IMG/VR virus record: IMGVR_UViG_3300010158_000044
DNA length: 64,000 bases
Strand: one strand, 5' to 3'
Origin: an uncultured virus (IMG/VR IMGVR_UViG_3300010158_000044)
Taxonomy: Duplodnaviria; Heunggongvirae; Uroviricota; Caudoviricetes
Part shown: piece by piece, positions 309 through 63,913 of the stretch
Position numbering within the stretch: position 1 is the first letter of the stretch
Layout: each line of letters begins with the position of its first letter
Program-made: the position numbers and the translations under genes
Notes under the pieces: generated by a model
The model's input: only the letters and a program-made list of their open reading frames with translations
Told to the model about the DNA's origin: nothing
The model's database searches: none

Positions 309-1298
309 ATGAATTTGGTGCAGAGGGCGGTAGAACAAGGCGGTAAGTTAGCCCCCATAGTTTTTCCACACGATCTTACAGCTTTGATGAATCCATCTAT
401 CTACATAGATAGTGATGGGGACATCTTAGTTAACGTCAGGGCTACTAACTATACGTTATACCACTCTGAGAATAAACAACTCTTTCCCTCACCCTGGGGC
501 CCTTTGGCATACCTACACCCTGAAAAAGATCAACGTTTAATTACTGAAAACTACTTAGTAAGGTTAGATAAAAACCTTGAAGTTATTAACCACACAATAA
601 TAGAGATGTTAAATCTACACACTCCTATCTGGGAGTTTGTTGGTTTAGAAGATGCTCGCCTTGTTCAATGGGATAATAAGTATTATATTATTGGGGTGCG
701 GCGTGATACCACAACTAGTGGTCAAGGTCGTATGGAACTTACCCAGATAGATATTGATAAAGAAACTTGGACTGTTAAAGAGGTTAGCCGTGATCGTATC
801 CCGACTCCAGAACCTGATACATCATACTGTGAAAAAAACTGGATGCCTATTGCTGATAGTCCTTATAATTTTATTAAGTGGGCTTCTCCTGTGGAAGTTG
901 TGCAATACATCCCAGAGATCAAAACTACCAAACAAGTATCCCTCAAGCAAGGTATCAGACCAAACAAAGATCAACGTGGGGGGTCTCAACTTGTCAGATG
1001 GGGTGACGGTTACATCTCAATCACCCATGAAGTAGATCTATTTAAAAATTACTTAATTCAAAAAGACGGCATCTATCGTCATAGATTATGTGTCTGGAAT
1101 AACAATCTAGATCTAGTAGGTTTATCTAAACCCTTCTCTTTCCTAGATGCTCGAATTGAATTCTGCGTTGGAGCGGCAGAGCTTGATAGGGATCTACTCC
1201 TAAGCTTTAGCGTCAGCGATAACTGCGCTTTCATTATTCGTACTCCAGGTATATTGGTAGAGGAATTAATCGTGGAGGCCCTTAACTATGAGAATTGA
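309..1298 (+). CDS. five-bladed beta-propeller glycoside hydrolase/phosphorylase-like protein (GH130/DUF377-like)
   Basis: MNPSI, GLEDARL, EKNWMP, RGGSQL, IEFCVG motifs. Confidence 0.65.
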   Translation: MNLVQRAVEQGGKLAPIVFPHDLTALMNPSIYIDSDGDILVNVRATNYTLYHSENKQLFPSPWGPLAYLHPEKDQRLITENYLVRLDKNLEVINHTIIEMLNLHTPIWEFVGLEDARLVQWDNKYYIIGVRRDTTTSGQGRMELTQIDIDKETWTVKEVSRDRIPTPEPDTSYCEKNWMPIADSPYNFIKWASPVEVVQYIPEIKTTKQVSLKQGIRPNKDQRGGSQLVRWGDGYISITHEVDLFKNYLIQKDGIYRHRLCVWNNNLDLVGLSKPFSFLDARIEFCVGAAELDRDLLLSFSVSDNCAFIIRTPGILVEELIVEALNYEN

Positions 1299-1845
1299 AG
1301 AGTTGATAGTAGACCTGTCTAAGGATCCTTTTAACCCGGAGTTAAACTTTAGGGTAGCGGTTAAGTACGAAGATCTTAAGCAAGCAGCTTCTGCTATAAC
1401 CTTTTATTTGAGGACTGCTGAATATGGGGTAGATACCCACAATGACCTGGCGTATGCTTCCCTATTAAAAATGGCGGTTTGTCTTTCTACCCAAAATAAC
1501 AGAGAGCATACGGTACTTAATTGTTGGCGCCAAGCTTTGATAGTTAACCCGGATCGTCCTGAAGCTTATTTTATTATGGCCCAGTATCATGAACAAAAAG
1601 CGGAATGGCATGAAGCCTATACCTGGGCAGTTATGGGCCTTTCTAAAGTTGAGCAAACGCCCCTGCCCGTTGATGTAGGTTACCCTGGAAACTTTGCCCT
1701 AGAGTTTGAAAAAGCGGTTGCTGGTTGGTGGATAGGAAGAGCCGAAGAGTCAAAAGCTATATTTTCCAAACTACTTACTATGGACATTCCTAGTAACTAT
1801 GTGGAAGCCATTATAGATAATTTTAAGCGTATAAACCCTTCCTAA
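1288..1845 (+). CDS. TPR-like helical repeat protein
   Basis: QAL..NPDRPEAYF..A TPR-like segments; overlaps upstream gene. Confidence 0.65.
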   Translation: MRIEELIVDLSKDPFNPELNFRVAVKYEDLKQAASAITFYLRTAEYGVDTHNDLAYASLLKMAVCLSTQNNREHTVLNCWRQALIVNPDRPEAYFIMAQYHEQKAEWHEAYTWAVMGLSKVEQTPLPVDVGYPGNFALEFEKAVAGWWIGRAEESKAIFSKLLTMDIPSNYVEAIIDNFKRINPS

Positions 1846-1889: not shown

Positions 1890-2813
1890 ATGACAGCTGT
1901 ATTTCCTAATAGCGTACGAAACTACACCGCTCAACAGGACCTTGTAAACACCGTTATTGCTGACAACGTTAACTCTCTGCAAGAAGAAGTAAAGCAGATT
2001 GAGACAGTTATCGGTAGTGCGGCCACGTCACAAAATCCTCTTGTCTCTACATGGTCTGGGTCGTTCTCTCAAAGTACAACTTGGGGAACTCTCTATGATC
2101 GTATTGCTAATATTGAGGCGGGAATTTTACAAGGTACGTCTTCTGGACCTTATGTTTTTAAATCCGGTGGAAGCACAATTACCGTAACTACAGCAACCGC
2201 TGCCCCAGGATTAACTCTTACTACAAGTTCCGGAACTAATAATCTTCTTACCGCAGGAATCTTTACCCTAAGCTCTACTGGCCTACCACAAGTTAGCGGA
2301 AGTAACGTTCTCTATGTAGGTAGTTCAGACTATACAACTTTAACTTCTGCTACCTCTGCGGCATCAACTGCTGCGGCAGCTAAGATTCCTTTATCTACCG
2401 TAACAACTGCCGGTGATCTTATACTTGGAACTGGAAATGCTACGGTCGGTCGTTTAGGTATCGGTACTACCGGATATGCTCTTGTAAGCAATGGCACTAC
2501 TGCTGCTTGGGCTATCCCTACAGATACCTCTAAAATCCCTCTAGCGACCGTTACAGCGGTTGGAGACCTTATCCTAGGGTCAGGAGCTGGGGCTGTTTCT
2601 AGACTCGGTCTAGGGGCCTCTGGAACCGTTTTAACAAGCAATGGTACGACCGCAACATGGGCTACCCCAACTACCTACCTAGCTACAGCTAACGCTGCGG
2701 TTACTGCAGCAAACACATCTTCTGGCGTAGTTCGTAATATTTATTTAAACACTGCGGCACCTTCTACTACCACAGGATATCTTGATGGAGATATTTGGTT
2801 GGTCTACGTATAA
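1890..2813 (+). CDS. virion structural/tail fibre protein with two 50-aa repeats
   Basis: AAGGAG RBS; Thr/Ser/Gly-rich; KIPL.TVT..GDLILG.G...V.RLG.G..G..L.SNGTTA.W twice; C-terminal DGDIW motif. Confidence 0.65.
   Translation: MTAVFPNSVRNYTAQQDLVNTVIADNVNSLQEEVKQIETVIGSAATSQNPLVSTWSGSFSQSTTWGTLYDRIANIEAGILQGTSSGPYVFKSGGSTITVTTATAAPGLTLTTSSGTNNLLTAGIFTLSSTGLPQVSGSNVLYVGSSDYTTLTSATSAASTAAAAKIPLSTVTTAGDLILGTGNATVGRLGIGTTGYALVSNGTTAAWAIPTDTSKIPLATVTAVGDLILGSGAGAVSRLGLGASGTVLTSNGTTATWATPTTYLATANAAVTAANTSSGVVRNIYLNTAAPSTTTGYLDGDIWLVYV
2382..2670 (+). repeat. 150-nt-period intragenic duplication (2 copies)
   Basis: repeat units start at 2382 and 2532. Confidence 0.8.
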
Positions 2814-3937
2814 TGCAAGGTCAGATTAAAGTAGGTGGGTCTTGGAACCATGCCGCTAAAACTATATTTGTAAAGGTAACTACAGGGGGGGCCTCTGGTT
2901 GGCATAACGTAACCTCTGGTTGGGTTAAAGTTAGCGGTGTATGGAAAAAATGGTTTTTATCTACTTTCTTAGATAACTTTCAACGTACTACTAGCGCCAC
3001 TTCTTTAGGCTCTCCTGATGGAATTAAAACTTGGAGTAACATTCGCGGTGCTTGGGGCATTGTAAGTAACACAGCAACAGCTAATTCTGCTGCCAGTACA
3101 TACCCAATTGCAACTATTGACTTTGGTTCTACAGATGTAACGATTCTTCAAGATGGCTTAACTCCAGGTGTTGGTGCTGCTTTTTGGGTGACTGATAGCA
3201 ATAACTGGTGGGCTACGGCTACTAATGAAACTCAAAACTCTCAAACTCAATATGTAGCTGGTAGTACTAGCTACGGTACTTGTTATTCCCCCGCTACTAC
3301 TAACTACGGCACTTGCTATAACGCTGGAAATCCCAACTATGGTACATGTACTGGTGGTGGAAATATCTATTTTGGTACTTGCTCTACCCCTGGAAATACT
3401 ATCTATGGCACCTGTTATTCTTACGTTTACGGCAGTTATTACAATTCCTATACATGTGCTATCGGAACTAATCCAACCACTTATTATTCATGTTCTGGAG
3501 TTAACCCGACGTATAATTATTCTTGTCCTGATGGTGGTAGTAACACTGGAAATTCTTTTTCCTGTCCTTCAGGAAGTAACGCAGCTTATAATTATACTTG
3601 CGCTACTGGAACTAATGCGCCATATTATACAACTACGTACTCTTATGCCTATACAGTAAATGTTCTTAAGTCTATAGCTGGAACAATTACTACGGCAGCA
3701 ACGTTTACTTTTTCATCTTTAGTTGTTGGCCTTAAAACATTAATATACGGATCAACAGGAAACATAACTGTTAGGGCCTATTCAGCTTCAGGATTTGGCA
3801 GTCAAATTGGCTCTGATCAGACCTATACAGCCCCAAGTTACACAGCAACTACAACTCATGGTATAATTCTTGCTCCAGCAAACTATGCACAGGGCACTAC
3901 ATTTTCTAGTTACGAAGTAGACTTTATAACAATTTAG
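2813..3937 (+). CDS. tail fibre/receptor-binding protein with Cys/Tyr-rich insert
   Basis: TAATG-coupled start at 2813; N-terminal KVGGSW/VKVSGVWK repeats, lectin-like beta-rich body, 10 regularly spaced Cys. Confidence 0.6.
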   Translation: MQGQIKVGGSWNHAAKTIFVKVTTGGASGWHNVTSGWVKVSGVWKKWFLSTFLDNFQRTTSATSLGSPDGIKTWSNIRGAWGIVSNTATANSAASTYPIATIDFGSTDVTILQDGLTPGVGAAFWVTDSNNWWATATNETQNSQTQYVAGSTSYGTCYSPATTNYGTCYNAGNPNYGTCTGGGNIYFGTCSTPGNTIYGTCYSYVYGSYYNSYTCAIGTNPTTYYSCSGVNPTYNYSCPDGGSNTGNSFSCPSGSNAAYNYTCATGTNAPYYTTTYSYAYTVNVLKSIAGTITTAATFTFSSLVVGLKTLIYGSTGNITVRAYSASGFGSQIGSDQTYTAPSYTATTTHGIILAPANYAQGTTFSSYEVDFITI

Positions 3938-3945
3938 GGATAAAA

Positions 3946-4281
3946 ATGGCATTTAAAAATCGGTACAAAGAAGAACTTAAACAATACAAAAATAACAAAA
4001 GAAAAAACTTTATAAAATCTTTGCCGCATAAATTAGGTTTTCATTTTCATTGGTATAAAGACTTACAAATGAAAAATATTATAGAACAAAATTTATTGCC
4101 AGATACCTCTTCTGTTAATAAACATCTTGCTTTTATAATAGATGATGAAGTAGTAGAGATCATGCACTGTCAAGAAAGATTAGCTGCTATTTTATTAAGT
4201 AATCCAAAAATTGTTGAAGTATTAGACCTTACTATGGTTAAAGTTGGATATAAATATAAAAACAATAAGTTTATAAAATAA
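3946..4281 (+). CDS. hypothetical protein, paralogue of 5910..6173
   Basis: LAFIIDDEVVEIM...LAAILLSNP.IV. Confidence 0.6.
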   Translation: MAFKNRYKEELKQYKNNKRKNFIKSLPHKLGFHFHWYKDLQMKNIIEQNLLPDTSSVNKHLAFIIDDEVVEIMHCQERLAAILLSNPKIVEVLDLTMVKVGYKYKNNKFIK

Positions 4282-4297
4282 CTTTTAAGGAGGCAAA

Positions 4298-5056
4298 ATG
4301 TATAAAAAAATAGAGTTTGTACTAGATTCTGGATACACTCTTCCAATTAATATTCCAATACCCGCAGCATCAATTTTACCTAATTGGTGGAAAGAAGGGG
4401 AATCTTTTATTAATAGAGAAACTGGTGCTTTAGATATGAGTACCCCAGATTTAAAAGCTGCAGGTATGAAATCTTGCATGCCATTTCTTGATGCTCTTAA
4501 TTCAGGTTATTTTCTTACTACTTGGGTTGATATTGAAATTACTAAAAATGACGGGGTAGAAATTAAGTACAAATATTTAGATAAAAATTCTAAGGGGGAA
4601 AATATTTATAGCGCCATTGATTGGGGAATGGTTAAAGAAAGAAATGGAGCTATTGGGTATACGATTCCACGTCCTGCCGGTCATTCTCACAATCACATGG
4701 TATGGGATAGTAAATGGGGTTGGGAAGTTCCTAAGGGGTGGAGCGTGCTTGTTACACATCCTTTAAACCAAGCACAATTACCTTTTACAACATTATCCGC
4801 TATAGTAGACAGTGATAGATATGTCCCTCATGGAAATATTCCTTTCTTTTTGAAAGAAGGTTGGACAGGTGTTATTGAAAAAGGAACTCCTTTTGCTCAG
4901 TTAATACCGATTAATCGGCAAGAATGGATGGCTACCTCTAAAGTAGCCGGTCCTAAAGAAAAATTTATTGCCAATAAAGCTAGGTCTGTGCAATTTGGTT
5001 ATTATAGGTCTAAACTTTGGGTACCTAAAAAATATAGAAATGATACAGATGTTTAA
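4298..5056 (+). CDS. conserved phage hypothetical protein (DUF6065-like), paralogue A
   Basis: AAGGAGG RBS; P.WW, K.C.PFLD..GY, P.GWS.L.THP.N, VD.D, GTP.AQ..P. Confidence 0.6.
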   Translation: MYKKIEFVLDSGYTLPINIPIPAASILPNWWKEGESFINRETGALDMSTPDLKAAGMKSCMPFLDALNSGYFLTTWVDIEITKNDGVEIKYKYLDKNSKGENIYSAIDWGMVKERNGAIGYTIPRPAGHSHNHMVWDSKWGWEVPKGWSVLVTHPLNQAQLPFTTLSAIVDSDRYVPHGNIPFFLKEGWTGVIEKGTPFAQLIPINRQEWMATSKVAGPKEKFIANKARSVQFGYYRSKLWVPKKYRNDTDV

Positions 5057-5837
5057 AAATAATAAAAAATTAAGCATTACGCCAACAAAAGATAACACAA
5101 TTGAGTTTTTGCTTACTGATACTGATTTAAATAGTTCCCCCGTAAATATAGTAAGGGGCATAGATAAAATACCTGACTGGTATAAAGACCTTACTATTAG
5201 AACTTCAATTACTCATGAAGAAGAAAATGTTACGCACACTAATTTTACAATTAAACGTTGCATTCCTGTGTTAGATGTTTTAACTTTAGGGTACTATATT
5301 GTTACCGCTAGAGACTATACATTTAAGTATGATGAGGAAAAAGGTCACCATACAATATCCGGGGCTTTTAATACATCCTATCAACCAGTAAGTATGCACC
5401 CCATAGAACAACTTGGGGGTATGCCATTTTCTTCTGAGTATTGTGTCTTTGCCTATAAGTGGATTAACCCATATGTAATCAAAACTCCAGCTGGGTATAG
5501 CTCTTTGATAAGTCATCCATCTAATTCCCCATACCTACCCTTTTATACCCTTGGTGGGGTTGTAGATACAGACTCTTATTTTAGGCCTATAAATTTTCCA
5601 TTCCTTGTTAAGAATACGTTTAGTGGGGTTTTACCCGCAGGAACCCCTATAGCCCAGATTACCCCTTTTAAAAGAGATGAGTGGTCTTCAAAAATTATCA
5701 CTAACCCTTCCGATGAATTTAGGGTAAGCCAAAATTTGTTAACAGAACAGTACGAAAAAGATAGGCAAGGGCCTGGCGGCAAGGAAGTAGGCGGGGTTTA
5801 TAAAAAGCTTTACCGCACTAAAAAACGGTATCTTTAA
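5049..5837 (+). CDS. conserved phage hypothetical protein (DUF6065-like), paralogue B
   Basis: same motifs as 4298..5056; start could be 5040 or 5049. Confidence 0.6.
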   Translation: MFKNNKKLSITPTKDNTIEFLLTDTDLNSSPVNIVRGIDKIPDWYKDLTIRTSITHEEENVTHTNFTIKRCIPVLDVLTLGYYIVTARDYTFKYDEEKGHHTISGAFNTSYQPVSMHPIEQLGGMPFSSEYCVFAYKWINPYVIKTPAGYSSLISHPSNSPYLPFYTLGGVVDTDSYFRPINFPFLVKNTFSGVLPAGTPIAQITPFKRDEWSSKIITNPSDEFRVSQNLLTEQYEKDRQGPGGKEVGGVYKKLYRTKKRYL

Positions 5838-6194: not shown

Positions 6195-6443
6195 ATGAAT
6201 CCTTGGGAAGAATATAAAGCTAAAAACGGAGTTACTCCTTTAGATTTATTGAGACTTAAAAGTCAAACAATTCCTAAAGAAAAAGCTGACGCTAGGTATA
6301 CCATATGTTTATCTTGTCCTTTTTTGCAAAAAATGACGAAGCAGTGTTTAAAGTGTGGATGCTTTATGGCAGCAAAAACTAAGTTAGATTTAGCAACATG
6401 TCCCATTGGTAAATGGGGCGAATACACCGAAGATACGGAGTAA
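6195..6443 (+). CDS. small six-Cys protein (DUF6171-like)
   Basis: GGAGG RBS; R..IC..C...QC.KCGCFM.AK..L..A.CP.GKW. Confidence 0.65.
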   Translation: MNPWEEYKAKNGVTPLDLLRLKSQTIPKEKADARYTICLSCPFLQKMTKQCLKCGCFMAAKTKLDLATCPIGKWGEYTEDTE

Positions 6444-8937: not shown

Positions 8938-10947
8938 ATGGCAAATCTTGCCCGTCCCGGAGTCTATATCCAAGAAGTGTCTCTTCCACAAGCTGTGCAG
9001 GCTGCAAATACTGCAAACGCTGTCGGAGCATTTGTTGGAATTCTTCCACAAGGTCCTACATCAGCACCTGTACAAGTAAGTACTTGGCCAGATTTTGTTA
9101 AGACTTTTGGTGGATTAAATGACTTATACCCAACTACTTGGGCTGCTTATAACTTTTTTGCTAATAACGGCCGCAACCTATATGTAAAGCGTGTTATTGG
9201 ATCAGGTTCTGGAATAGGAACTGTCGCTATTAACGATGGTACCGGAACCACTACTACCACTACTGCTACAGTTACTGCAGCCTCTAGTCAATCTACTACA
9301 GCTACAGTTACCGCAGCATCAGCTGCATCCGGTACAGTTACCTATACAGCAACTAATACGTTTGTAGCTGGTCAAACAGTATCTATTACTGGTTTATCTA
9401 CAGCTGCTTTTAACTTAACTTCTGTAACAATTGCTACAGCTACTGGTTCACAATTTACAGTAACAAATGCTGCTACAGGAACCGCAGTAACTGGTGCTAC
9501 AGCTACAGCTACGGCTCTAAGTAATACCGTTACATACACAGCTACTAACACATTTGCCGTTGGACAGACAGTAACTATTACTGGTCTTTCAACAACAGCA
9601 TTTAACTTAAGTAGCGCAACTATTGCTACTCGCTCAAGCTCACAGTTTACTGTTACAAGTACCGCTACAGGTACTGCAGTTACTGGTGCCTCTGCCACAG
9701 CTACTGTTACTGTAACAACAGCTTCTAATACAGTATTTACTATTAACGCTGCTAGCGCAGGAGCTTGGTCTGGTGCTTATTCAGTTAAGATTGTAACCGC
9801 AGGATCTGCTTCTCGTTTTGGTCTTGAGGTTTACCAGACAACTACTGTTAATGGAAACTCAACCACAACTTTGCTTGAGTCTTACACCGATTTAAGTATG
9901 TCCTCGACAGATAGAAATTTTGTTTTATCTGTTGTTAACTCTAATACTACTTCAGTAATTAATATCTCTAATAGTTTAGATAATACAAAGTCTCCAGCAG
10001 TTAACGCAACACCTGTTGCGCTTTCTGGGGGCAGTGATGGTACAACTGTTGCACGTGCAGATTATGCTTCTGCTTGGACAACATTTGATTCAATAGTTAA
10101 CCCATTGGTTATTTACGCACCAGATGCTCCATATGCTGCAACAGGTACTCTAACCGCACAACTTCACGGCGATGCTGTGGTTTATGCTTCTAGTCGTACT
10201 GACTGTTTTGCAGTATTTGATACTCCTTCTGGACTGTCAGCAACAGCTGCACAAACTCAAGTAACTGCAACATACGCAATTTTTTCTGGAGCTACTTCAG
10301 GAAATATTGCTGCAGCTTACTATCCTTGGTATAACATCCCAGATACAACTAAGAGCATTGGCGTAACTCGTCTACAAGCTCCTGGTGCTGGTGTTGTTGG
10401 TCAATACATTGCAACTGATGCTTCTCGTGGTCCATCTAAAACTCCAGCAGGTCTTCAAAATGTTATGGCTCTTGCCGTATCTACTGAACACTTGTTTACT
10501 AACGCTGAGCTAGACGCCATTAATACAAGTGTTGACCCTATTAACGCCATTCGTCAGGTTCCTGGCGCAGGTATCGTTATCATGGGTGGTCGCACTCTAG
10601 ATAATACTCCAAATAATCGTTATATCAACATTCGACGTTCTTTGATTTACATTGAAAAGTCTATGAATGATCTAACATCATTTGCTTTGTTTGAGAACAA
10701 TGACTCACGTCTATGGGCTCAAATTCGCACTAATTTAAATAGCTTCTTGCTTGCTTATTGGCAATCAGGTGGCCTACGTGGAACAAACCCAACTCAAGCA
10801 TATTACGTAAAGTGCGATGCAACTACAACCAGCTTCAGTGATATGCAGCAAGGTAAAGTTAATATTGAAGTTGGAGTTTCTCTTGAATACCCAGCAGAGT
10901 TCGTTGTCATTAAACTTGGACAACTAACCGGAAACGCTTCAGCGTAA
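8938..10947 (+). CDS. contractile tail sheath protein
   Basis: RPGVYIQE N-terminus; AAAYYPW, RGPSKTPAG, GGRTL, YINIRR, FENN, PAEFVVI sheath motifs. Confidence 0.95.
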   Translation: MANLARPGVYIQEVSLPQAVQAANTANAVGAFVGILPQGPTSAPVQVSTWPDFVKTFGGLNDLYPTTWAAYNFFANNGRNLYVKRVIGSGSGIGTVAINDGTGTTTTTTATVTAASSQSTTATVTAASAASGTVTYTATNTFVAGQTVSITGLSTAAFNLTSVTIATATGSQFTVTNAATGTAVTGATATATALSNTVTYTATNTFAVGQTVTITGLSTTAFNLSSATIATRSSSQFTVTSTATGTAVTGASATATVTVTTASNTVFTINAASAGAWSGAYSVKIVTAGSASRFGLEVYQTTTVNGNSTTTLLESYTDLSMSSTDRNFVLSVVNSNTTSVINISNSLDNTKSPAVNATPVALSGGSDGTTVARADYASAWTTFDSIVNPLVIYAPDAPYAATGTLTAQLHGDAVVYASSRTDCFAVFDTPSGLSATAAQTQVTATYAIFSGATSGNIAAAYYPWYNIPDTTKSIGVTRLQAPGAGVVGQYIATDASRGPSKTPAGLQNVMALAVSTEHLFTNAELDAINTSVDPINAIRQVPGAGIVIMGGRTLDNTPNNRYINIRRSLIYIEKSMNDLTSFALFENNDSRLWAQIRTNLNSFLLAYWQSGGLRGTNPTQAYYVKCDATTTSFSDMQQGKVNIEVGVSLEYPAEFVVIKLGQLTGNASA

Positions 10948-40962: not shown

Positions 40963-41269
40963 GGGGCAGAAACAATCTCTAAAGCATGAAAAGCGATTAG
41001 AGAAAGCTACGGGTGGCAAGCGCAGTGCCGCCTCTGGTGCATTTTGGTCTCGTAAGGGGGACGTCAGAACAGATGACCTCCTTATCGAGCACAAGTGGAC
41101 TGGTAAAAAGTCGGTAACAATTAAGTCAGATGTACTTGAAAAGATTACTAGAGAAGCAATACTTGATAGCAGAACGCCAGTACTTGGTCTGCATCTTGAT
41201 GGTGAAAACTACGTCGTGCTATTGGAGGAGGATTTTTTTGAACTGCGTAATGCAGTAAGAGGTGAATAG
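40952..41269 (+). CDS. PD-(D/E)xK nuclease / Holliday junction resolvase-like
   Basis: HE.R, ASGA....KGDV......IEHK. Confidence 0.75.
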   Translation: MKSEGQKQSLKHEKRLEKATGGKRSAASGAFWSRKGDVRTDDLLIEHKWTGKKSVTIKSDVLEKITREAILDSRTPVLGLHLDGENYVVLLEEDFFELRNAVRGE

Positions 41270-41610
41270 TGCGATATAGCGACGACCCGGAATGGACTTG
41301 GAGATATGATGCCAAGTGTCAGGGCGAAGATACAGAGATGTTCTTCCCACCCCGAGACAAAGCTCTCTACAAGCCGATAGCGGATAAGGCTAAAGCAATA
41401 TGTTGGGGCAAGGATGGGCGACCACCGTGTCCTGTACGTAAAGAATGTCTTAAGGAAGCTATCAACAACAATGAGTTACATGGAATCTTTGGTGGGCTAT
41501 CCCACAGAGAAAGAAATGCGGCCGAACGTAAACTTAAGAAACAGGGGATAACTTTAGATGAGTGGATTGACCAAGGGAGCAAGTATGGGAAAGCCGGTGA
41601 CGGTTCCTAG
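41269..41610 (+). CDS. whiB: WhiB family transcription factor
   Basis: AKC....EMFFP, AKAIC(8 aa)CPVR.EC..EA, GIFGGLS.RER. Confidence 0.92.
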   Translation: MRYSDDPEWTWRYDAKCQGEDTEMFFPPRDKALYKPIADKAKAICWGKDGRPPCPVRKECLKEAINNNELHGIFGGLSHRERNAAERKLKKQGITLDEWIDQGSKYGKAGDGS

Positions 41611-43350: not shown

Positions 43351-43436
43351 AGGCTTATAGGGGTACTGACGGGCGTTTAAAGGGTATTGTAGGGCTTTAG
43401 GTGGGCACACAAATCGAAACCAAAGGACTACAAATC

Positions 43437-43730
43437 GTGACCGATACTCCAACAACACCTAATACAGAAGAGAAGTTCCTACGTGTAGGGGCTGGCTCTA
43501 ATGCACAGTCAGTCGGGTCGGCTATTGCCCACGCCCTTTATGAAAAACCTCAGGTGCACTTACGTGCAGTGGGGGCCTCAGCAGTTAACCAGGCGGTAAA
43601 AGCTATTGCTATTGCCAGCGGTTACGTTGCACCACGAGGTATGAACCTAACCTGTCGCCCAGGATTTACTACGGTAGATTCAAGAGACGGACAGATTAGT
43701 GCAATTGTCTTTACAATCAACGTAAGTTAA
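43437..43730 (+). CDS. spoVS: stage V sporulation protein S (SpoVS)-family protein
   Basis: LRV...SN..SV..AIA...RAVGA.AVNQAVKAIAIA.G.VAP.G..L.C.P.F matches the SpoVS consensus; AAGGA RBS. Confidence 0.9.
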   Translation: MTDTPTTPNTEEKFLRVGAGSNAQSVGSAIAHALYEKPQVHLRAVGASAVNQAVKAIAIASGYVAPRGMNLTCRPGFTTVDSRDGQISAIVFTINVS

Positions 43731-53889: not shown

Positions 53890-54350
53890 TGTCAGCAATT
53901 ATTGCAATAGAGGGTGTTTTAATGACCGAGGTTGGAGATCCAATCCCGGAAGGCATTAAGCTGTTCCGAATTCTTTCTGAAGTTTATCGTGTTGTTTTAA
54001 GCTCCGATATGGATCCAGATAAAACTGAGCATTGGCTTCGTAGCCATTTAATCTTTGGGTACGGCGATATCTATGATAATTCAAAGTTTTTTGTAGGACA
54101 AGAGCTACGCCTACGCCACCTGGATATAGCTAAGTCGCAAGGCAAGGTTGAGCTATTTATTGACTCAGACGCAGATTTTTGCGCTGCTGCCCTATCTATG
54201 AACATCCCAACTATTATGTTTGCTTCTCCTCGTTTTGTTAGAACTAACCGCAGTGTTAAACCGTGGGAAGATCTGCAGAAAGAAGTAGATCTGCAGCGTG
54301 AAGCTCTTTTGGAAGCTCACCTAGGTAGTAGAATCAACCGGTTCGAATGA
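53886..54350 (+). CDS. HAD-fold protein with degenerate catalytic motif
   Basis: IIAIEGVL (cf. DxDGVL), PI.EG, VLSS, LFIDSD. Confidence 0.65.
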   Translation: MMSAIIAIEGVLMTEVGDPIPEGIKLFRILSEVYRVVLSSDMDPDKTEHWLRSHLIFGYGDIYDNSKFFVGQELRLRHLDIAKSQGKVELFIDSDADFCAAALSMNIPTIMFASPRFVRTNRSVKPWEDLQKEVDLQREALLEAHLGSRINRFE

Positions 54351-55825
54351 ACCTGGTATTCATGGGGGCTGAAGTACCGTCCCATCGCATATTACTTACT
54401 AACATGGGAGTTAAGCATGTTAGCGTCAACTATTATCGTTTAGTCAAGCGTGGCTTGCCTAAGACCAAAGATTACTTGATCCAGGGAAGATTTCCGGATG
54501 ATGTTAAAGTCTACGTAGATGGTGGCGGGCACCAGATCAATGACCTTAACATGACTGAGCGTGAGATTCAAGAGTATGCGGAGAACTACCAGGAATGGGT
54601 CGGCATCAATGCCGAAAGAATCTCTGGAGCTACTGAGCTAGACGCTAAAGTACTTGGGCCTTCATGGACTAACTACCATCGCACCACTATGATTGAGAAT
54701 CTTGGGGAAGATAAGCTTTGGGTAGTGTGGCACCCAGAATTAGGCCATACGGCCCTCTACGGCCTTGCAGAGCGATACATGAACATTGCCCTACTAGGAG
54801 AGACTTTAGAGGACGATACAAGCCTTGCAGCCCGTTCTAGAGCCCTTCTAAATGAGTTCCCTGATCTACAATTTCACGGTGTGGCATGTGCCAAACCTGA
54901 TAACCTACGCCAGGTGGCATTGACCACAGCAAGCAGTCTTTCTTGGTTAAGTCCAATGATGCGTGGAGAAACAATTGTCTGGGATGGAACCCGTTTGGTT
55001 CGTTACCAGAAGAAGCAAAAAGATCAAGCTCGTCCTCGCTATAAAGCGATCATTGAGAGAGCTGGTTTAGACTACGACAAGATTATTAATGACGATAGTA
55101 ATGAGGTAACCCGCCTCGCTATATGGTCCTACATGCAACTGGAGAACGCCTTGGATAAAAGATCCGGTAAGAAGCTATCTGATAACAGTGAGTTTATAGA
55201 TGACCCAGGAAGTGCGGAAACAGGTGGTGCGCTTCCTGATAAGAGACCTTCAGAAGGTAGGAAAGTTTTGGCAGAAAGAGACGTAAATGACCGTCAGATT
55301 CTGCCTGTTTTTGGTGTAAAAGTTAAGACGGTTGTTGAAAAAGATGAGGATGGAAAAGATGTTCTTAAAGATGTACCTATCCTTTCTAGCACCTCTGCAT
55401 CACTTCGTCAATGCGATACTTGCTTTGTAGCGGCAAATTGTCCTGCTTTTAAACCTGCTAATAGTTGTGCTTTCAATCTACCTGTAGAGATTAAGACTAA
55501 AGAGCAACTTAAGGGTTTACTCAACACAGTTATCGAAATGCAGGGCGCTAGAGTCGCTTTTGCACGATATGCAGAGGAATTGAACGGCGGATACCCGGAT
55601 CCTAACACTGGACAAGAGATTGATCGACTCTTTAAATTGGTTGGTCAAATGAAAGAACTGGAAGAGAATAAAGAGTTCATCCGTATCACAGCAGAGCGCC
55701 AAACTTCTGGCGGTGTATTGTCAGCCCTATTTGGTGACAAAGCTAACACTCTCCGTGAGCTCCCTAACGGTGGACTAAGTGAGGCCCAATCGAGTAGAAT
55801 ATTAGATGAGGGCTTTAAACTTTAA
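54347..55825 (+). CDS. TGT/DpdA-like TIM-barrel protein with C-terminal Cys4 and helical domain
   Basis: ordered motifs VDGGG, ELD, VWH, IALLG, HGVA, SSLSW, RG echo DSGAF/LD/PV.H/ALGG/H.LG/DS.SW; CDTC....C......C. Confidence 0.55.
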   Translation: MNLVFMGAEVPSHRILLTNMGVKHVSVNYYRLVKRGLPKTKDYLIQGRFPDDVKVYVDGGGHQINDLNMTEREIQEYAENYQEWVGINAERISGATELDAKVLGPSWTNYHRTTMIENLGEDKLWVVWHPELGHTALYGLAERYMNIALLGETLEDDTSLAARSRALLNEFPDLQFHGVACAKPDNLRQVALTTASSLSWLSPMMRGETIVWDGTRLVRYQKKQKDQARPRYKAIIERAGLDYDKIINDDSNEVTRLAIWSYMQLENALDKRSGKKLSDNSEFIDDPGSAETGGALPDKRPSEGRKVLAERDVNDRQILPVFGVKVKTVVEKDEDGKDVLKDVPILSSTSASLRQCDTCFVAANCPAFKPANSCAFNLPVEIKTKEQLKGLLNTVIEMQGARVAFARYAEELNGGYPDPNTGQEIDRLFKLVGQMKELEENKEFIRITAERQTSGGVLSALFGDKANTLRELPNGGLSEAQSSRILDEGFKL

Positions 55826-59415: not shown

Positions 59416-59640
59416 TCACAGTATCAGTGCGGCATTTATTTCATCTTCTTCGGTTTCATTATATATGTCTCCTACTTCAGCCCATCCAGCGTTAAAGTCC
59501 TCACGCCATTTGGCTGAGTTCTCATCCATAATCTGTTCTTCAGCAAGAGCTTTAGCTTCAGCTTCGGATGATGCTGTAATGAATGAGTCATATATCCTAT
59601 GTTCATGGATTGTTACTCTATACATATTTCTATCTACCAT
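59416..59640 (-). CDS. small acidic hypothetical protein
   Basis: TAATG-coupled; Y.V.I.E......I.A.S..EA...A. Confidence 0.6.
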   Translation of the reverse strand: MVDRNMYRVTIHEHRIYDSFITASSEAEAKALAEEQIMDENSAKWREDFNAGWAEVGDIYNETEEDEINAALIL

Positions 59641-60092
59641 TATTCCACCCCCTTTGTTGTTACTCGGAATGACCCATCTGGCATAGGCCATTTGTATGGC
59701 AAGTCATCTTCTACCTCAAAGTCATAATGCTCTGGAAGCTTACGCTTTAAGTTAGATTGATGACTCTTATGAAACTCTTCTGCTCCTAACCACCAAGGTT
59801 TCTTGATAGCTACAAGCTTATGTTGTTTCATAAGTTCGATTATTTGCCCCCTCATATTATCTACGAACCCACGCTTTGACCACTCATTACACATAGTGAT
59901 AGCATAGGCAGCTAGCATACCTTCGTTACCACGCCACATTACAGCAGCAGGGTGATTGCGCCATCCCTCAGTTAGACCCAGGTTGGCCTTGAGTATTTGA
60001 AACGCTTCTACACGTTGCTTACCCAATCTCCTATCGTCTAAGGATTCCGCTACTTGCACGAAGTCTGCATACGGTAGAAATGTATTTACCAT
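59640..60092 (-). CDS. pyrimidine dimer DNA glycosylase (MSMEG_6728/DenV-like)
   Basis: TFLPY.DF...A..LD.RRLGKQRVEA.QIL, W.NHPA..MW.G, PWWLG...H.SH.SNL.RK. Confidence 0.9.
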   Translation of the reverse strand: MVNTFLPYADFVQVAESLDDRRLGKQRVEAFQILKANLGLTEGWRNHPAAVMWRGNEGMLAAYAITMCNEWSKRGFVDNMRGQIIELMKQHKLVAIKKPWWLGAEEFHKSHQSNLKRKLPEHYDFEVEDDLPYKWPMPDGSFRVTTKGVE

Positions 60093-60406
60093 GGTGCGCT
60101 CCAAGCGTTTAGGTTACATGATGTACAACGGACTTGATAGTCCTCTTCCATTACCTCCCACTCAAAATGTTTACACATTTGGTGTTCAGGTTTTAGCGAG
60201 TCCTCTTTCAATATAAATGGGTAACCAGGCGGCCAATCTGACTCATCTGGATCCACATCATATTGATAGTACTCACCCGCTAATTCTTCTGGAGTAAATT
60301 CTTTAATCATCTCCCCTGCTACTTGTCTAGCAGACCTGAGTGCCTGTATAGATACTCCAGCTTTTTTTGCTGTTAGATATTCTTCGAAGTTAAACACTTC
60401 TCCCAT
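60086..60406 (-). CDS. hypothetical protein
   Basis: ORF track; C.H...C..C. Confidence 0.55.
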   Translation of the reverse strand: MGEVFNFEEYLTAKKAGVSIQALRSARQVAGEMIKEFTPEELAGEYYQYDVDPDESDWPPGYPFILKEDSLKPEHQMCKHFEWEVMEEDYQVRCTSCNLNAWSAPW

Positions 60407-60619: not shown

Positions 60620-62515
60620 TTAAGCGCTTCTACGCTTTTTGATTGCACCCATTACTACCGCTTTGGCAAATGGGATTAGATCACGGGCAGAGTTGATACG
60701 CCCATAGATTTCAGCTTCATGGCGAAAACTATTATCGCTTTCTCCACGTTCTGTATACCACGTGTAATCTCGATCACGCATGATTAGAGTCATCGCAGTT
60801 AGAATGCCACGCTTACTAATACGTTGTATAACCTCGTCATTTCTTTCGTGGTTAAACGCACCATCAGTAATGATAAACAGCATTTTGTTCTTCTTACGAG
60901 AAGACATGAGAAGCTGTTCAGCAGCAATCAGTGAGCCATATGGATTGGTACCTCCATTGCCATATATAAACTTAAAGCGTGTTTTGTGAGCACGCTCTGT
61001 ACGTTTGTAGGCAATCTCGGTTTTATCATCGAATGCGTACACCGTTACCGGTGCATCGATAGCCTCAAGAGCACGCTTGATAGTCCAGCATGCTAAGGAT
61101 GCGCTACGATCATTTTGGTCACTGCTCATAGAACCGGATCGATCAACTAAGATCACCGCTTCTACATCAGCACCATCGTTACCCTCTTCCCAACGGTCAA
61201 AGGCTTCGTCTACTTCACATCCATTGATAACACGTTGGACATTTAGCTTACCACTTGGTACGCCTTTGTTCCAACCTGGCTCACACTCATCACGTAAGCG
61301 CTCAAGCTCTCTAGCAAAAGCACGATACATAACGACTGTGTCATTAGGAACATCGGTGAGGTCGAATTTGCCATCCTTAGTAGACTCATCGAACTTACCA
61401 TCACCACCAACGATTACTCGTTGCTTGGCTTTGATATCCTGTTGAACTGCTTTGTTAGCATAGACCTCATCAATTGCATTGTTTAATGCATTATTGATAT
61501 TGTCTGGAATACCACCCTTACTCTCATGATGTCCTTTACCAGGATCAATAGATGGTGGTGCATCTTGCTGTGCTTTCTGAAGCATGTCACGTATTGCTAG
61601 TGCTTCTGCTGCGCTTTGTGGTGCCGGTATGTTGAGGCCCTCATCGCTGGCATCGGGTTTGTTTGTGTTGGCGTTGTCTTCCTTAGTTTTAGGCTTAGGC
61701 ATATACACTGACTCTGCTTTACCCATATTACTTGCACGTTGTGAGTCTTTCTCTTGCATCTTGCCAGGCTCAGGACGACCCTTAGCCATTGGATCACGGC
61801 TACCGCAAGCATTAGGACCACCCGATATGTCTGGGAACTCTTTGCGTATAGGCTTGAGCACCTCATCATTAAAGCGTTCGATAAGTATTTGTGCTTTCAT
61901 GTAGTCCCTAGGGAATGCAAGTAAGCGATACTGATCCACGATATCCATGATGTTAGGTATAAGTTCGGGGAATGCAAACGCATCTCGATACGCTTCCCGA
62001 ATCTCTACCGGTAGATATCTGCGACCACGTACTAGCATGTAAGCGCCAGAGGTTTCCTCTGGTGTTTCACCTAGCCATCTAGCCACAGTACCAATTAGAT
62101 ATGGAGCAACAGCTGGATACCTAGCACATAGTAATGTCTCAATGCGCTGGTCTTCCAACATGTTGGTAGCCTCCATATAATCATTTTGTAGAACCCATTT
62201 GATCAGTTCTGTACCCTTGCGAGGCGTATAGAAATGATGGGCTAGCTCATGATAGTTCAGGCCCGTCACCTGAGTTAGTGTTTCCATATCCATCTCAGAT
62301 ATTTCTTCTTGATTGATATAGATTGCGGCACCGTCAGACCAAGCGGGCGCAGGCCCACCAGCCATTACGTTGACGATTAGTGGATCACCTGTAAGAACAC
62401 GATCTGCTTGTTCATACACACGACAAAGAGCACCTAATTGAATGATGCGTTCTTGTTCTAGTTCTGAACGAGCGTCTCCTCCCCACGGTGAGTCATCTAC
62501 TTCATCTATAAGCAT
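60620..62515 (-). CDS. vWA domain protein with N-terminal HExxH metallopeptidase-like domain (CobT-like)
   Basis: YHELAH, NMLEDQRIE, SGKLN, LVDRSGSM (MIDAS), GGT, IITDG. Confidence 0.88.
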   Translation of the reverse strand: MLIDEVDDSPWGGDARSELEQERIIQLGALCRVYEQADRVLTGDPLIVNVMAGGPAPAWSDGAAIYINQEEISEMDMETLTQVTGLNYHELAHHFYTPRKGTELIKWVLQNDYMEATNMLEDQRIETLLCARYPAVAPYLIGTVARWLGETPEETSGAYMLVRGRRYLPVEIREAYRDAFAFPELIPNIMDIVDQYRLLAFPRDYMKAQILIERFNDEVLKPIRKEFPDISGGPNACGSRDPMAKGRPEPGKMQEKDSQRASNMGKAESVYMPKPKTKEDNANTNKPDASDEGLNIPAPQSAAEALAIRDMLQKAQQDAPPSIDPGKGHHESKGGIPDNINNALNNAIDEVYANKAVQQDIKAKQRVIVGGDGKFDESTKDGKFDLTDVPNDTVVMYRAFARELERLRDECEPGWNKGVPSGKLNVQRVINGCEVDEAFDRWEEGNDGADVEAVILVDRSGSMSSDQNDRSASLACWTIKRALEAIDAPVTVYAFDDKTEIAYKRTERAHKTRFKFIYGNGGTNPYGSLIAAEQLLMSSRKKNKMLFIITDGAFNHERNDEVIQRISKRGILTAMTLIMRDRDYTWYTERGESDNSFRHEAEIYGRINSARDLIPFAKAVVMGAIKKRRSA

Positions 62516-62524
62516 TTAACCTCC

Positions 62525-63913
62525 TTATACTAGTTGTTTAGCCCATTCTTCCAGGCGTTGGTCAATGCTTGCATCTGCAGGATGCTCTGTTACTTCACCA
62601 GTATCTAGACCAAAGTCAGTCTTGATGTTGTACTCATGAGTCTGGAAGACCATGCGTACGCTGGCTTGCTCATCTGTACTAAAGTGAGCGATAAAGTTCT
62701 CTGCTGCAAACTCATAGCCAAGATCGTCTACAAGCTTAGTGAACTCCATACCCATATTGGTAGAGATTGGTGTTTCATATTGACCTTTAGCAGCCTCTAC
62801 ACGAAGTTGCTTCATCAATATGCGAAGAGCCTTAGAACCAATCAACTTCTCCTCAACAGCATCGTCATAATCCCAAGGGATTTGAATGTCGAAGCGATTG
62901 CGGAACGCAAAGTTGAGCGGCGTGGTGCCGATATAATCTGGATTCATAGTAGCAAAGATAGTAAGGTCTGGATGAGCCTCAATAGTCTCGCCGTGATGAT
63001 CGAGCAATATAATATTGCGACGACCATCGGTCAATGAATACAGATTGGTATAGATCTTAGGATTGATGAAGTTAACCTCATCAAGCAAAAGAACGCCACC
63101 ATTGCGAACTACGTCAGTTACTGGACCATCAATCCACATGAATGCACCTTCTCCATCGGAGACGAATTTTCCAGTCATTTGACTTGGCTCCATTGATGCA
63201 TTACCAGAGATTGATGCCATACGTAAGCCACGCTCTGAGGCCCACGCTTCAACTGATGTAGTCTTACCAGGGCCAGTTGGGCCATAGATAAGCACGTTGA
63301 TACCTTCAGCACGTGCGTGGTCATAGACTTTGAAGTCTTCCACGCCCCACACCTTGCGATGTACATAGCGCTCAGCTAATTCCTTGCGTGGAACTGTTGC
63401 AAGATTTACGCTAAACACTTTGCCACCGGATGATACTGATGTGTTGTCCATTGTTTGTGTTGGCACAGGAACTACCAACGGGACTGTTGCACCAGCTTGA
63501 CGACGATTATCTATTACATATGTTTCCAATGTGTCATCTCCAATTAGTGTTTGGTCATACAGTTCATAGAGTTTATCTAAGAACGGTGTTGTATCTGTAT
63601 TAGGTTCAGCCTTAGCATGCTGATTACATGCTTTAGTTCCCAATACAGGAGAATAGCCTTTGTCTGCAATTGCCTTCTCATCTGCTGCCGTAACATATAC
63701 GCCAACAGGGGTCCGTGTCAATTGCTCATTGCTATCAATCATGTTCACGAATTGATCTACGTGAGCATCCTCCCACTTATTGTGTGGACCTTTGCTACCA
63801 TCAGTCATTCGAGACCAGATTCTGACTCCACCTTCATGCGGGGACATAAGGATTTGACGTCGCTTAGCACCCATACTTGGTTCGTAAGACTCGGTGAATA
63901 CTGCTATCTCCAT
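62525..63913 (-). CDS. MoxR/CbbQ/CobS-like AAA+ ATPase
   Basis: GPTGPGKT, W.DGP, LLLDEVN, ATMNP.Y.GT..LN.AFRNRF; AGAAAGGA RBS. Confidence 0.92.
   Translation of the reverse strand: MEIAVFTESYEPSMGAKRRQILMSPHEGGVRIWSRMTDGSKGPHNKWEDAHVDQFVNMIDSNEQLTRTPVGVYVTAADEKAIADKGYSPVLGTKACNQHAKAEPNTDTTPFLDKLYELYDQTLIGDDTLETYVIDNRRQAGATVPLVVPVPTQTMDNTSVSSGGKVFSVNLATVPRKELAERYVHRKVWGVEDFKVYDHARAEGINVLIYGPTGPGKTTSVEAWASERGLRMASISGNASMEPSQMTGKFVSDGEGAFMWIDGPVTDVVRNGGVLLLDEVNFINPKIYTNLYSLTDGRRNIILLDHHGETIEAHPDLTIFATMNPDYIGTTPLNFAFRNRFDIQIPWDYDDAVEEKLIGSKALRILMKQLRVEAAKGQYETPISTNMGMEFTKLVDDLGYEFAAENFIAHFSTDEQASVRMVFQTHEYNIKTDFGLDTGEVTEHPADASIDQRLEEWAKQLV

Follow-up and report, generated by a model that had tools for sequence, protein, structure and literature searches.

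A proposed mirror-paired cysteine ladder in a probable tail-fibre-associated adhesin of uncultured freshwater phages

Here we describe P0001, the product of a gene in a 64,000-nucleotide stretch of DNA from an uncultured member of the Caudoviricetes (IMG/VR record IMGVR_UViG_3300010158_000044; this whole stretch is referred to below as the window). P0001 carries all of its cysteines in a single insert, arranged as two arms that mirror each other about a Tyr-rich centre, and comparison across a large family of phage relatives indicates that these cysteines are paired in nested order, the first with the last and so on inwards. We consider it probable that P0001 is a tail-fibre-associated adhesin, in which a lectin-type body bears a hairpin stapled by nested cysteine rungs.

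The ten cysteines of P0001 lie within residues 154-263 (nucleotides 3272-3601), and the remaining 264 residues contain none. Successive cysteines are separated by 11, 11, 11, 11, 14, 12, 11, 13 and 12 residues, the last four of these spacings being those of the return arm. Each cysteine closes a short unit, which ends in YGTC four times and FGTC once in the outbound arm and, in order, in YTC, YSC, YSC, FSC and YTC in the return arm. The turn between the arms, YSYVYGSYYNSY, occupies residues 202-213. Six residue types make up 90 of the 110 insert residues (19 Tyr, 17 Gly, 17 Thr, 14 Asn, 13 Ser and 10 Cys), the sole charged residue is one Asp, and there is no His. An earlier note, made from the letters of the window alone, had drawn attention to this 110-residue insert holding all ten cysteines, with five (Y/F)GTC units at an exact 11-residue period, a Tyr-rich turn and five (Y/F)(T/S)C units at 11-13 residues, and its description was borne out in full. 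The same logic recurs in hundreds of homologues, which argues that the pattern did not arise by chance. No DNA tandem repeat was found across the ladder region, suggesting that the ladder units are old and diverged and ruling out recent slippage as their source.

P0001 has no family in Pfam or PHROGs, neither the protein nor its DNA has a match in the phage GenBank collection, and none of the sources searched gives a name to the protein family to which it belongs. A word-indexed search returned 42 relatives, and an exhaustive phmmer search returned 382 representatives at E <= 0.001, 187 of them at E <= 1e-10. The family also occurs at 214 viral-contig loci in IMG/VR, 80 of which were kept, and the 71.9-kb record from which the window comes holds one copy. 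Members share conserved N- and C-terminal blocks around an insert of 11-488 amino acids, the bounds of which we set with hidden Markov models (HMMs) of the two flanks.

Of the 179 homologues delimited by HMM, 178 have an even number of insert cysteines. Odd totals for the whole protein, seen in 17 of 185 sequences, are due to a lone cysteine outside the insert, to truncated fragments or to the single odd insert. Among translations of the IMG/VR loci, all 61 distinct inserts have even counts, 55 of these inserts being absent from the first set; when distinct inserts are pooled, 233 of 234 are even, over a range of 0-64 cysteines. As units in the P0001 clade carry one cysteine each, duplication alone cannot account for even counts. 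Multiples of four are not favoured among the counts (10, 14, 18, 22, 26 and so on are just as common), which points to pairs of cysteines and not to four-cysteine metal sites. Judged from this parity, every cysteine of the insert is predicted to have a partner.

The spacing of the cysteines indicates how the partners are arranged. Gaps at mirror positions about the cysteine-count midpoint correlate with a Spearman coefficient of 0.577 (1374 gap pairs in 166 sequences), as against 0.202±0.024, with a maximum of 0.275, in 1000 within-sequence shuffles and 0.198 when the gaps are compared in direct (tandem) register. The coefficient falls to 0.10-0.24 when the centre is moved by 1-3 gaps and is still 0.54-0.57 when the outer 1-4 gaps are trimmed; 104 of the 166 sequences mirror best about the midpoint. 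In 15 homologues we could recognise a centre motif independently of cysteine counts, and in 14 of them the counts on its two sides are equal. The five with a VYGSYY-type centre are all balanced (5+5, 5+5, 6+6, 6+6 and 11+11), and balanced arms around a DGFRG-type centre take the values 7+7, 8+8 (six cases), 9+9 and 11+11. Within the clade of P0001, P0001 and P0002 have 5+5 cysteines and P0003-P0007 have 6+6, while P0008 has seven units per arm, of which one in each arm lacks its cysteine at the mirror position (unit 4 of 7).

Differences between close relatives bear on the same question. We compared pairs that differ by exactly two cysteines (flank identity at least 0.75, insert identity at least 0.6; n = 14), and in seven of the 14 the unmatched cysteines are exact mirror partners, an outcome with a chance of 1/13 to 1/31 per event; not all of the seven pairs are independent, and they are spread over four clades. 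The unmatched partners are at positions 8 and 23 of 30, 10 and 23 of 32, 8 and 25 of 32, and 11 and 18 of 28, the last in two pairs that share P0039. In P0016/L036 one unit has been inserted in each arm (cysteines 4 and 15 of 18), and in P0052/L035 two point substitutions account for the difference (cysteines 3 and 12 of 14) in an alignment that is otherwise free of gaps. This evolutionary evidence supports nested connectivity, Ci to Cn+1-i, for which the predicted links in P0001 are C157-C263, C168-C251, C179-C238, C190-C227 and C201-C215. The earlier note had proposed just this nesting, naming as tests that it might fail an unequal number of outbound and return units in homologues and a sequential or random connectivity. 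Mirror spacing, balance about the centre motif and mirror co-loss in half of the close pairs all speak for its proposal; arms were equal in all but one of the 15 homologues with a centre motif, and the tandem register gives no indication of sequential links.

The body that carries the insert was predicted with far greater confidence than the insert itself. AlphaFold2 modelled P0001 (97 sequences) with a mean predicted local distance difference test (pLDDT) score of 77.8, most ten-residue blocks of residues 21-150 and 271-370 scoring above 90. A full-library structural search with VIA-align matched the model to the carbohydrate-binding module (CBM) CBM66 (4b1m; Z 16.1), the C-terminal receptor-binding domain of mycobacteriophage TM4 gp23 (9n6a; Z 15.4) and the BppU-CBM of Douge gp23 (8zdo_a; Z 15.1), with root-mean-square deviations of 2.7-3.2 Å over 149-176 residues and an identity of just 9-13%. 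On this modelling, the body of P0001 would be a two-sheet jelly-roll sandwich of the concanavalin A (ConA)-like lectin/CBM fold, split by the insert. The lectin-like domain foreseen by the earlier note is thus matched at Z 15-16, and the Thr/Tyr-rich flanks that it had called strand-like are modelled as long strands (Table 1). Short strands were also modelled, at low confidence, at the base of the insert (residues 154-158, which include C157, and 262-266, which include C263) and between C201 and C215 (residues 201-205 and 209-213), placed as a hairpin would allow at both ends. In BFVD the matches were uncharacterised proteins of uncultured phages (E down to 5e-26), followed by actinophage minor tail proteins. 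Foldseek gave no match in the PDB at E <= 0.001, a profile of the family found no significant relative among PDB sequences (best E 0.036), and a look-up of residues 145-280 in the ESM Atlas gave no usable match; alphavirus E1, which appeared at E 0.036-0.05 in the profile search, was treated as compositional and set aside as a relative. Residues 116-311 of Douge gp23 are described as a CBM that binds mycobacterial lipoarabinomannan and arabinomannan (LAM/AM) and alpha-glucan (PMC13033339). In front of the P0001 sandwich, AlphaFold2 and DSSP place strands at residues 4-7, 10-13, 19-24, 27-32, 35-40 and 43-49; many homologues align to P0001 only from about residue 49 onward, and this N-terminal module (residues 1-48) is presumed to be the virion anchor.

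Several observations weigh against nested pairing, or against a uniform ladder throughout the family. One insert, that of P0053, has an odd count (17), and P0034 has 9+11 cysteines about its centre motif, the sole unequal case of the 15. In the pair P0031/P0034 two cysteines have been lost from one and the same arm, and another six of the 14 close pairs depart from exact mirroring: P0026/P0066 misses by one, and so does one side of L048/L064; L012 differs in a complex manner from both L014 and L017, and P0035/P0038 and P0033/P0038 have three unmatched cysteines against one, the exact mirror pair (8 and 21 of 28) occurring only in P0035/P0038. P0166 looks like a tandem duplicate and not like a mirror. 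Of 1829 pairs of mirror gaps, 48% match to within ±1 residue and 19% differ by more than 5, and adjacent CC doublets face cysteines that are 6 apart, which speaks against a flat ribbon that is regular along its whole length. The insert is free of cysteine in seven of the 179 delimited homologues, indicating that the ladder is dispensable for the fold. The predicted structures do not decide the matter: residues 164-261 of P0001 have pLDDT below 50, so that the pairing cannot be read from the model either way, and the same is true of the confidence at residues 135-183 in a homologue with a short ladder (P0133; 96 sequences). Finally, the cytoplasm in which phage proteins fold is reducing, and the open reading frames (ORFs) of the window that were scanned, a set that does not take in every small ORF, gave no match to a thiol oxidase, thioredoxin or Dsb-like family.

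Some of these points leave room for other explanations. The same mirror pairing could operate between chains, with Cys i of one chain linked to Cys n+1-i of its neighbour in a dimer or trimer, to give a multi-chain shaft. Phage fibres are usually trimers, and parity and mirror statistics would be the same whether the links lie within a chain or between identical chains. The Douge gp23 report also describes homodimers of the BppU-CBM (PMC13033339). We regard interchain links as unlikely all the same, since in the model the two ends of the insert join the same sandwich by long strands that lie side by side, an arrangement in favour of a hairpin within one chain. Quite unlikely, in our judgement, is that pairs of cysteines hold metal ions in the manner of metal-stapled T4-type fibre tips. 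Assembly is cytoplasmic, and metal would avoid the problem of the reducing compartment; moreover, metal-bearing fibre tips are known from T4 gp37 and gp12, where His-containing sites lie along the fibre axis. The comparison with such tips fails on His, which accounts for 0.3% of insert residues in the family and for none in P0001. In addition, cysteine counts do not favour multiples of four, cysteines are lost in twos as mirror partners, and two thiolates alone would, by established chemistry, bind the usual structural metals poorly.

A different connectivity altogether would result if the cysteines were paired with their neighbours in sequence, or interleaved as in a granulin-like stack, giving small disulfide-closed loops and no hairpin. 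The spacing of granulin cysteines is palindromic, and mirror spacing alone is therefore no proof of nesting; the two losses from one arm in P0031/P0034 and the tandem appearance of P0166 would also suit such a stack. What makes it very unlikely is that half of the close pairs lose exact mirror partners, which are 7 to 17 cysteines apart, that 14 of 15 homologues have as many cysteines before a fixed centre motif as after it, that the two arms differ in unit type, and that the tandem register does not rise above the shuffles. We give least credence to the view that the insert is a disordered, low-complexity linker whose cysteine pattern is a by-product of repeat duplication. Its low pLDDT, its composition and the seven inserts without cysteine are all consistent with a linker, yet duplication of one-cysteine units would leave half of the counts odd, whereas 233 of 234 are even, and point substitutions have removed mirror partners together.

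In the nested-hairpin architecture that we favour, the ConA-like/CBM sandwich would be interrupted between two long strands by a 110-residue hairpin, the outbound and return arms of which would be cross-linked rung by rung. The links would most likely be disulfides, as this is the simplest chemistry for strictly pairwise cysteines, and they could form when lysis has released the virion into oxic water. There is a report of approximately 1,700 disulfide bonds in the virion of an actinophage (PMC13419713). The product would be a covalently stapled, nearly uncharged projection rich in Tyr, Ser, Thr, Asn and Gly, with its length set by the number of rungs; its shape could be that of an extended ribbon, at approximately 11 residues per rung, or of a compact two-layer structure in which each unit makes a turn. 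Rung number in the family (from 0 to 32) would rise and fall by mirror pairs of cysteines, against a lectin body that changes far more slowly, and the hairpin would be the fast-evolving, host-contact part of the adhesin. A bolder proposal, which we find possible but rather doubtful, is that the ladder is a length-programmable stapled probe, in which rung count sets how far a sticky Tyr/Ser/Asn surface and its tip reach into or through the glycans of the host envelope, and host range is retuned one mirror rung pair at a time.

The insert does change faster than its surroundings. Among 339 pairs with flank identity of at least 0.6, 324 show lower identity in the insert than in the flanks (mean 0.43 vs 0.72), and the cysteine count differs in 247, for example 34 vs 64 cysteines at 77% flank identity. 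In a metagenome contig from another lake, 28 of the 40 listed substitutions fall inside the 330-nucleotide ladder, those listed spare every Cys codon, and indels are absent; 17 further differences are not listed. The centre is barely distinguished from the arms (identity 0.46 vs 0.42 and 0.41, with the centre higher in 175 of 315 pairs), a difference so marginal that a tip more conserved than the arms was ruled out as a general rule, and we claim no conserved functional tip for the family as a whole. Throughout the family the insert is rich in Cys (10.7%), Tyr (11.1%), Thr (14.2%), Ser (13.2%), Gly (11.2%) and Asn (8.9%), charged and aliphatic residues are scarce (K+R 1.9%), and the flanks contain 0.0% Cys. 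Long members (L018:6001-8034, L010, L017, L019 and L042; approximately 575-680 amino acids) have up to 64 cysteines, or 32 putative rungs, and retain 70-77% flank identity to forms with 30-40. At the other extreme, the cysteine-free inserts of P0021, P0032, P0041, P0162, P0163 and P0165 are rich in Tyr, Thr, Ser and Asn with alternating aromatics. These are apparently Cys-less versions of the same two-armed module, and their Tyr/Thr-rich sequences (e.g. P0021, P0163) suggest that the arms may hold together in some other way.

Near-identical DNA was found in freshwater and lake metagenomes of several studies, and metatranscriptome contigs are identical to positions 3461-3611, 3705-3855 and 4109-4300, although carry-over of DNA is possible. 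A scan of GTDB genomes gave a single family locus (L082), 78% identical, on a 12.5-kb contig of a metagenome-assembled genome labelled Bacteroidetes; this is probably a misbinned phage contig and, as such, uninformative on host.

The ladder may be compared with several known systems. Cystine-ladder beta-hairpins, such as theta-defensins and peptides of the protegrin/tachyplesin type, have antiparallel arms, parallel nested Cys-Cys rungs and no unpaired cysteine; they are cationic, free-standing peptides of approximately 18 residues with 2-3 rungs. They share the connectivity proposed for P0001 at roughly one tenth of the size. Unlike them, the P0001 insert is nearly uncharged, is 110 residues long and lies within a 374-residue virion protein, and rungs in its family are 11-13 residues apart and variable in number, with relatives extending to 488 residues and 32 rungs. 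The 'stalk and knob' of the bovine ultralong heavy-chain complementarity-determining region 3 (CDR H3) is a long projection from a beta-sandwich, diversified through cysteines that are even in number. It resembles the proposed P0001 hairpin as a recognition projection diverse in length and cysteines, with the Tyr/Ser/Gly-rich composition of a binding site; its disulfides are in the knob and none are known in the stalk, whereas in P0001 the stalk would be the ladder, and its diversity is somatic, whereas that of the P0001 family has arisen by evolution between phages. The gp38 adhesin of T2/S16-type phages is a small protein encoded right after the fibre gene, with Gly-rich repeats and hypervariable segments that determine host range. 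P0001 is likewise a separate small protein encoded directly after a fibre gene, with repeated Gly-rich units and hypervariable segments, but gp38 is not known to have a Cys ladder or a ConA-like body and matched in neither sequence nor fold in the searches run. Beetle-type antifreeze beta-helices consist of one type of 12-residue repeat, with two cysteines per coil joined by an intra-coil disulfide, and were ruled out as a model, given that the ladder has one cysteine per 11-13-residue unit, two unit types and a mirror register. The actinophage ConA-like receptor-binding domains of TM4 and Douge gp23 and CBM66 share the predicted body fold, and the two actinophage domains are also comparable in that the P0001 gene sits in a tail-fibre module and its phage has a probable actinobacterial host. 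P0001 differs from all three in having an identity of 9-13% to them, no Pfam family and no PDB chain better than E 0.036. We found no mention of a Cys-ladder insert for these proteins, and the word 'disulfide' occurs 0 times in PMC13033339. Nor did we find a published description of such a phage module, subscription journals lying outside the search. The module is, on this comparison, an undescribed variant of the variable region of a phage adhesin.

Table 1. Positions in the window of the ladder gene, the parts of its product and associated genes.
Feature	Position	Strand	Description
Fibre-like virion protein	1890..2813	+	307 aa (amino acids); phrog_23837 virion structural protein, E 4.6e-08; conserved upstream in L004 and L005
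Ladder protein P0001	2813..3937	+	374 aa plus stop; member of unnamed phage family
N-terminal beta-repeat module	2813..2956	+	aa 1-48; KVGGSW-type strands; only part of family
N-terminal half of predicted ConA-like lectin/CBM beta-sandwich	2957..3262	+	aa 49-150; pLDDT mostly >88
Long outgoing strand into insert (modelled)	3203..3256	+	aa 131-148; DSSP
Outbound arm	3272..3415	+	Five (Y/F)GTC units; Cys 157, 168, 179, 190, 201; exact 11-aa period
Tyr-rich centre	3416..3454	+	aa 202-214; 13 residues between C201 and C215
Return arm	3455..3601	+	Five (Y/F)(T/S)C units; Cys 215, 227, 238, 251, 263
C-terminal half of predicted ConA-like sandwich	3605..3934	+	aa 265-374; AlphaFold2 and structural search
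Long returning strand out of insert (modelled)	3623..3676	+	aa 271-288; DSSP
Small ORF	3946..4281	+	111 aa; BLASTP in 9/15 selected loci (11 matches); no Pfam or PHROGs match
Two paralogous phrog_7084 genes	4298..5056, ~5040..5837	+	E 3e-34, 4.4e-40; weak DUF6065 matches
WhiB-like transcription factor	41269..41610	+	Pfam PF02467, E 1.4e-17

The ladder gene belongs to a tail-fibre module. Its ATG at 2813 is the start common to homologues (a TTG lies further upstream, at 2795), and base 2813 is shared with the stop codon of the fibre-like gene before it (Table 1). Among 23 related loci, chosen from the 65 that have an upstream ORF, the upstream neighbour belongs to a tail-category PHROG in 18, is a glycosyltransferase in 2 and a virion structural protein in 1, and has no match in 2. 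Paralogues of phrog_7084 also lie downstream of the ladder gene in most of the 15 related loci compared, and their products may act on or with fibre proteins. Further downstream in the window are neck-region genes and genes for the tail sheath (8938..10947), tube and baseplate. This gene order supports the assignment to a tail or receptor-binding protein made in the earlier note. As the window encodes a WhiB-like factor, and WhiB is given as exclusive to Actinobacteriota and an indicator of actinophages in PMC10202952, the source is probably a lake myophage (41% GC) of an actinobacterial host.

Other features of the window and of related loci may be recorded here. Beside the fibre genes, positions 309-1845 (+) hold a weak GH130-like match and a TPR / phrog_13126 fragment, and a full phrog_13126 beta-1,4-glycosyltransferase immediately precedes the ladder gene at L023:3653-4693 and L040:5181-5978; such neighbours might glycosylate virion proteins. 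The tail sheath (8938-10947, +; 669 aa) contains a Thr/Ser/Ala-rich insertion of approximately 200 residues with two near-duplicate segments, which may be an extra surface domain. An 82-residue protein (6195-6443, +) with the pattern CxxC...CxxCxC...C and a weak match to DUF6171 (E 0.0013) has BLASTP matches at 9 of the 15 selected loci; it may be a zinc ribbon, and a redox role is possible. Other cargo includes SpoVS-like (43401-43730), queuine tRNA-ribosyltransferase-like (54347-55825) and pyrimidine-dimer DNA glycosylase (59640-60104) genes, and at 60620-63913 a VWA-domain protein lies beside a porphyrin-biosynthesis/ATPase-like (phrog_249) protein.

How phages recognise the abundant, hard-to-culture actinobacteria of fresh water is almost unknown, and the P0001 family offers a widespread, fast-evolving protein of the tail module governed by a simple, checkable rule, the mirror pairing of cysteines. 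If real, this would be the largest nested disulfide ladder known and a natural recognition stalk of tunable length, and the need for coordinated change at two sites far apart would pose an evolutionary puzzle. Should the proposal of a length-programmable probe also prove true, the family would represent a class of protein architecture not seen before, in which one chain forms a giant cystine ladder with as many as 32 rungs under an evolutionary rule of its own, and a possible scaffold for engineered binders.

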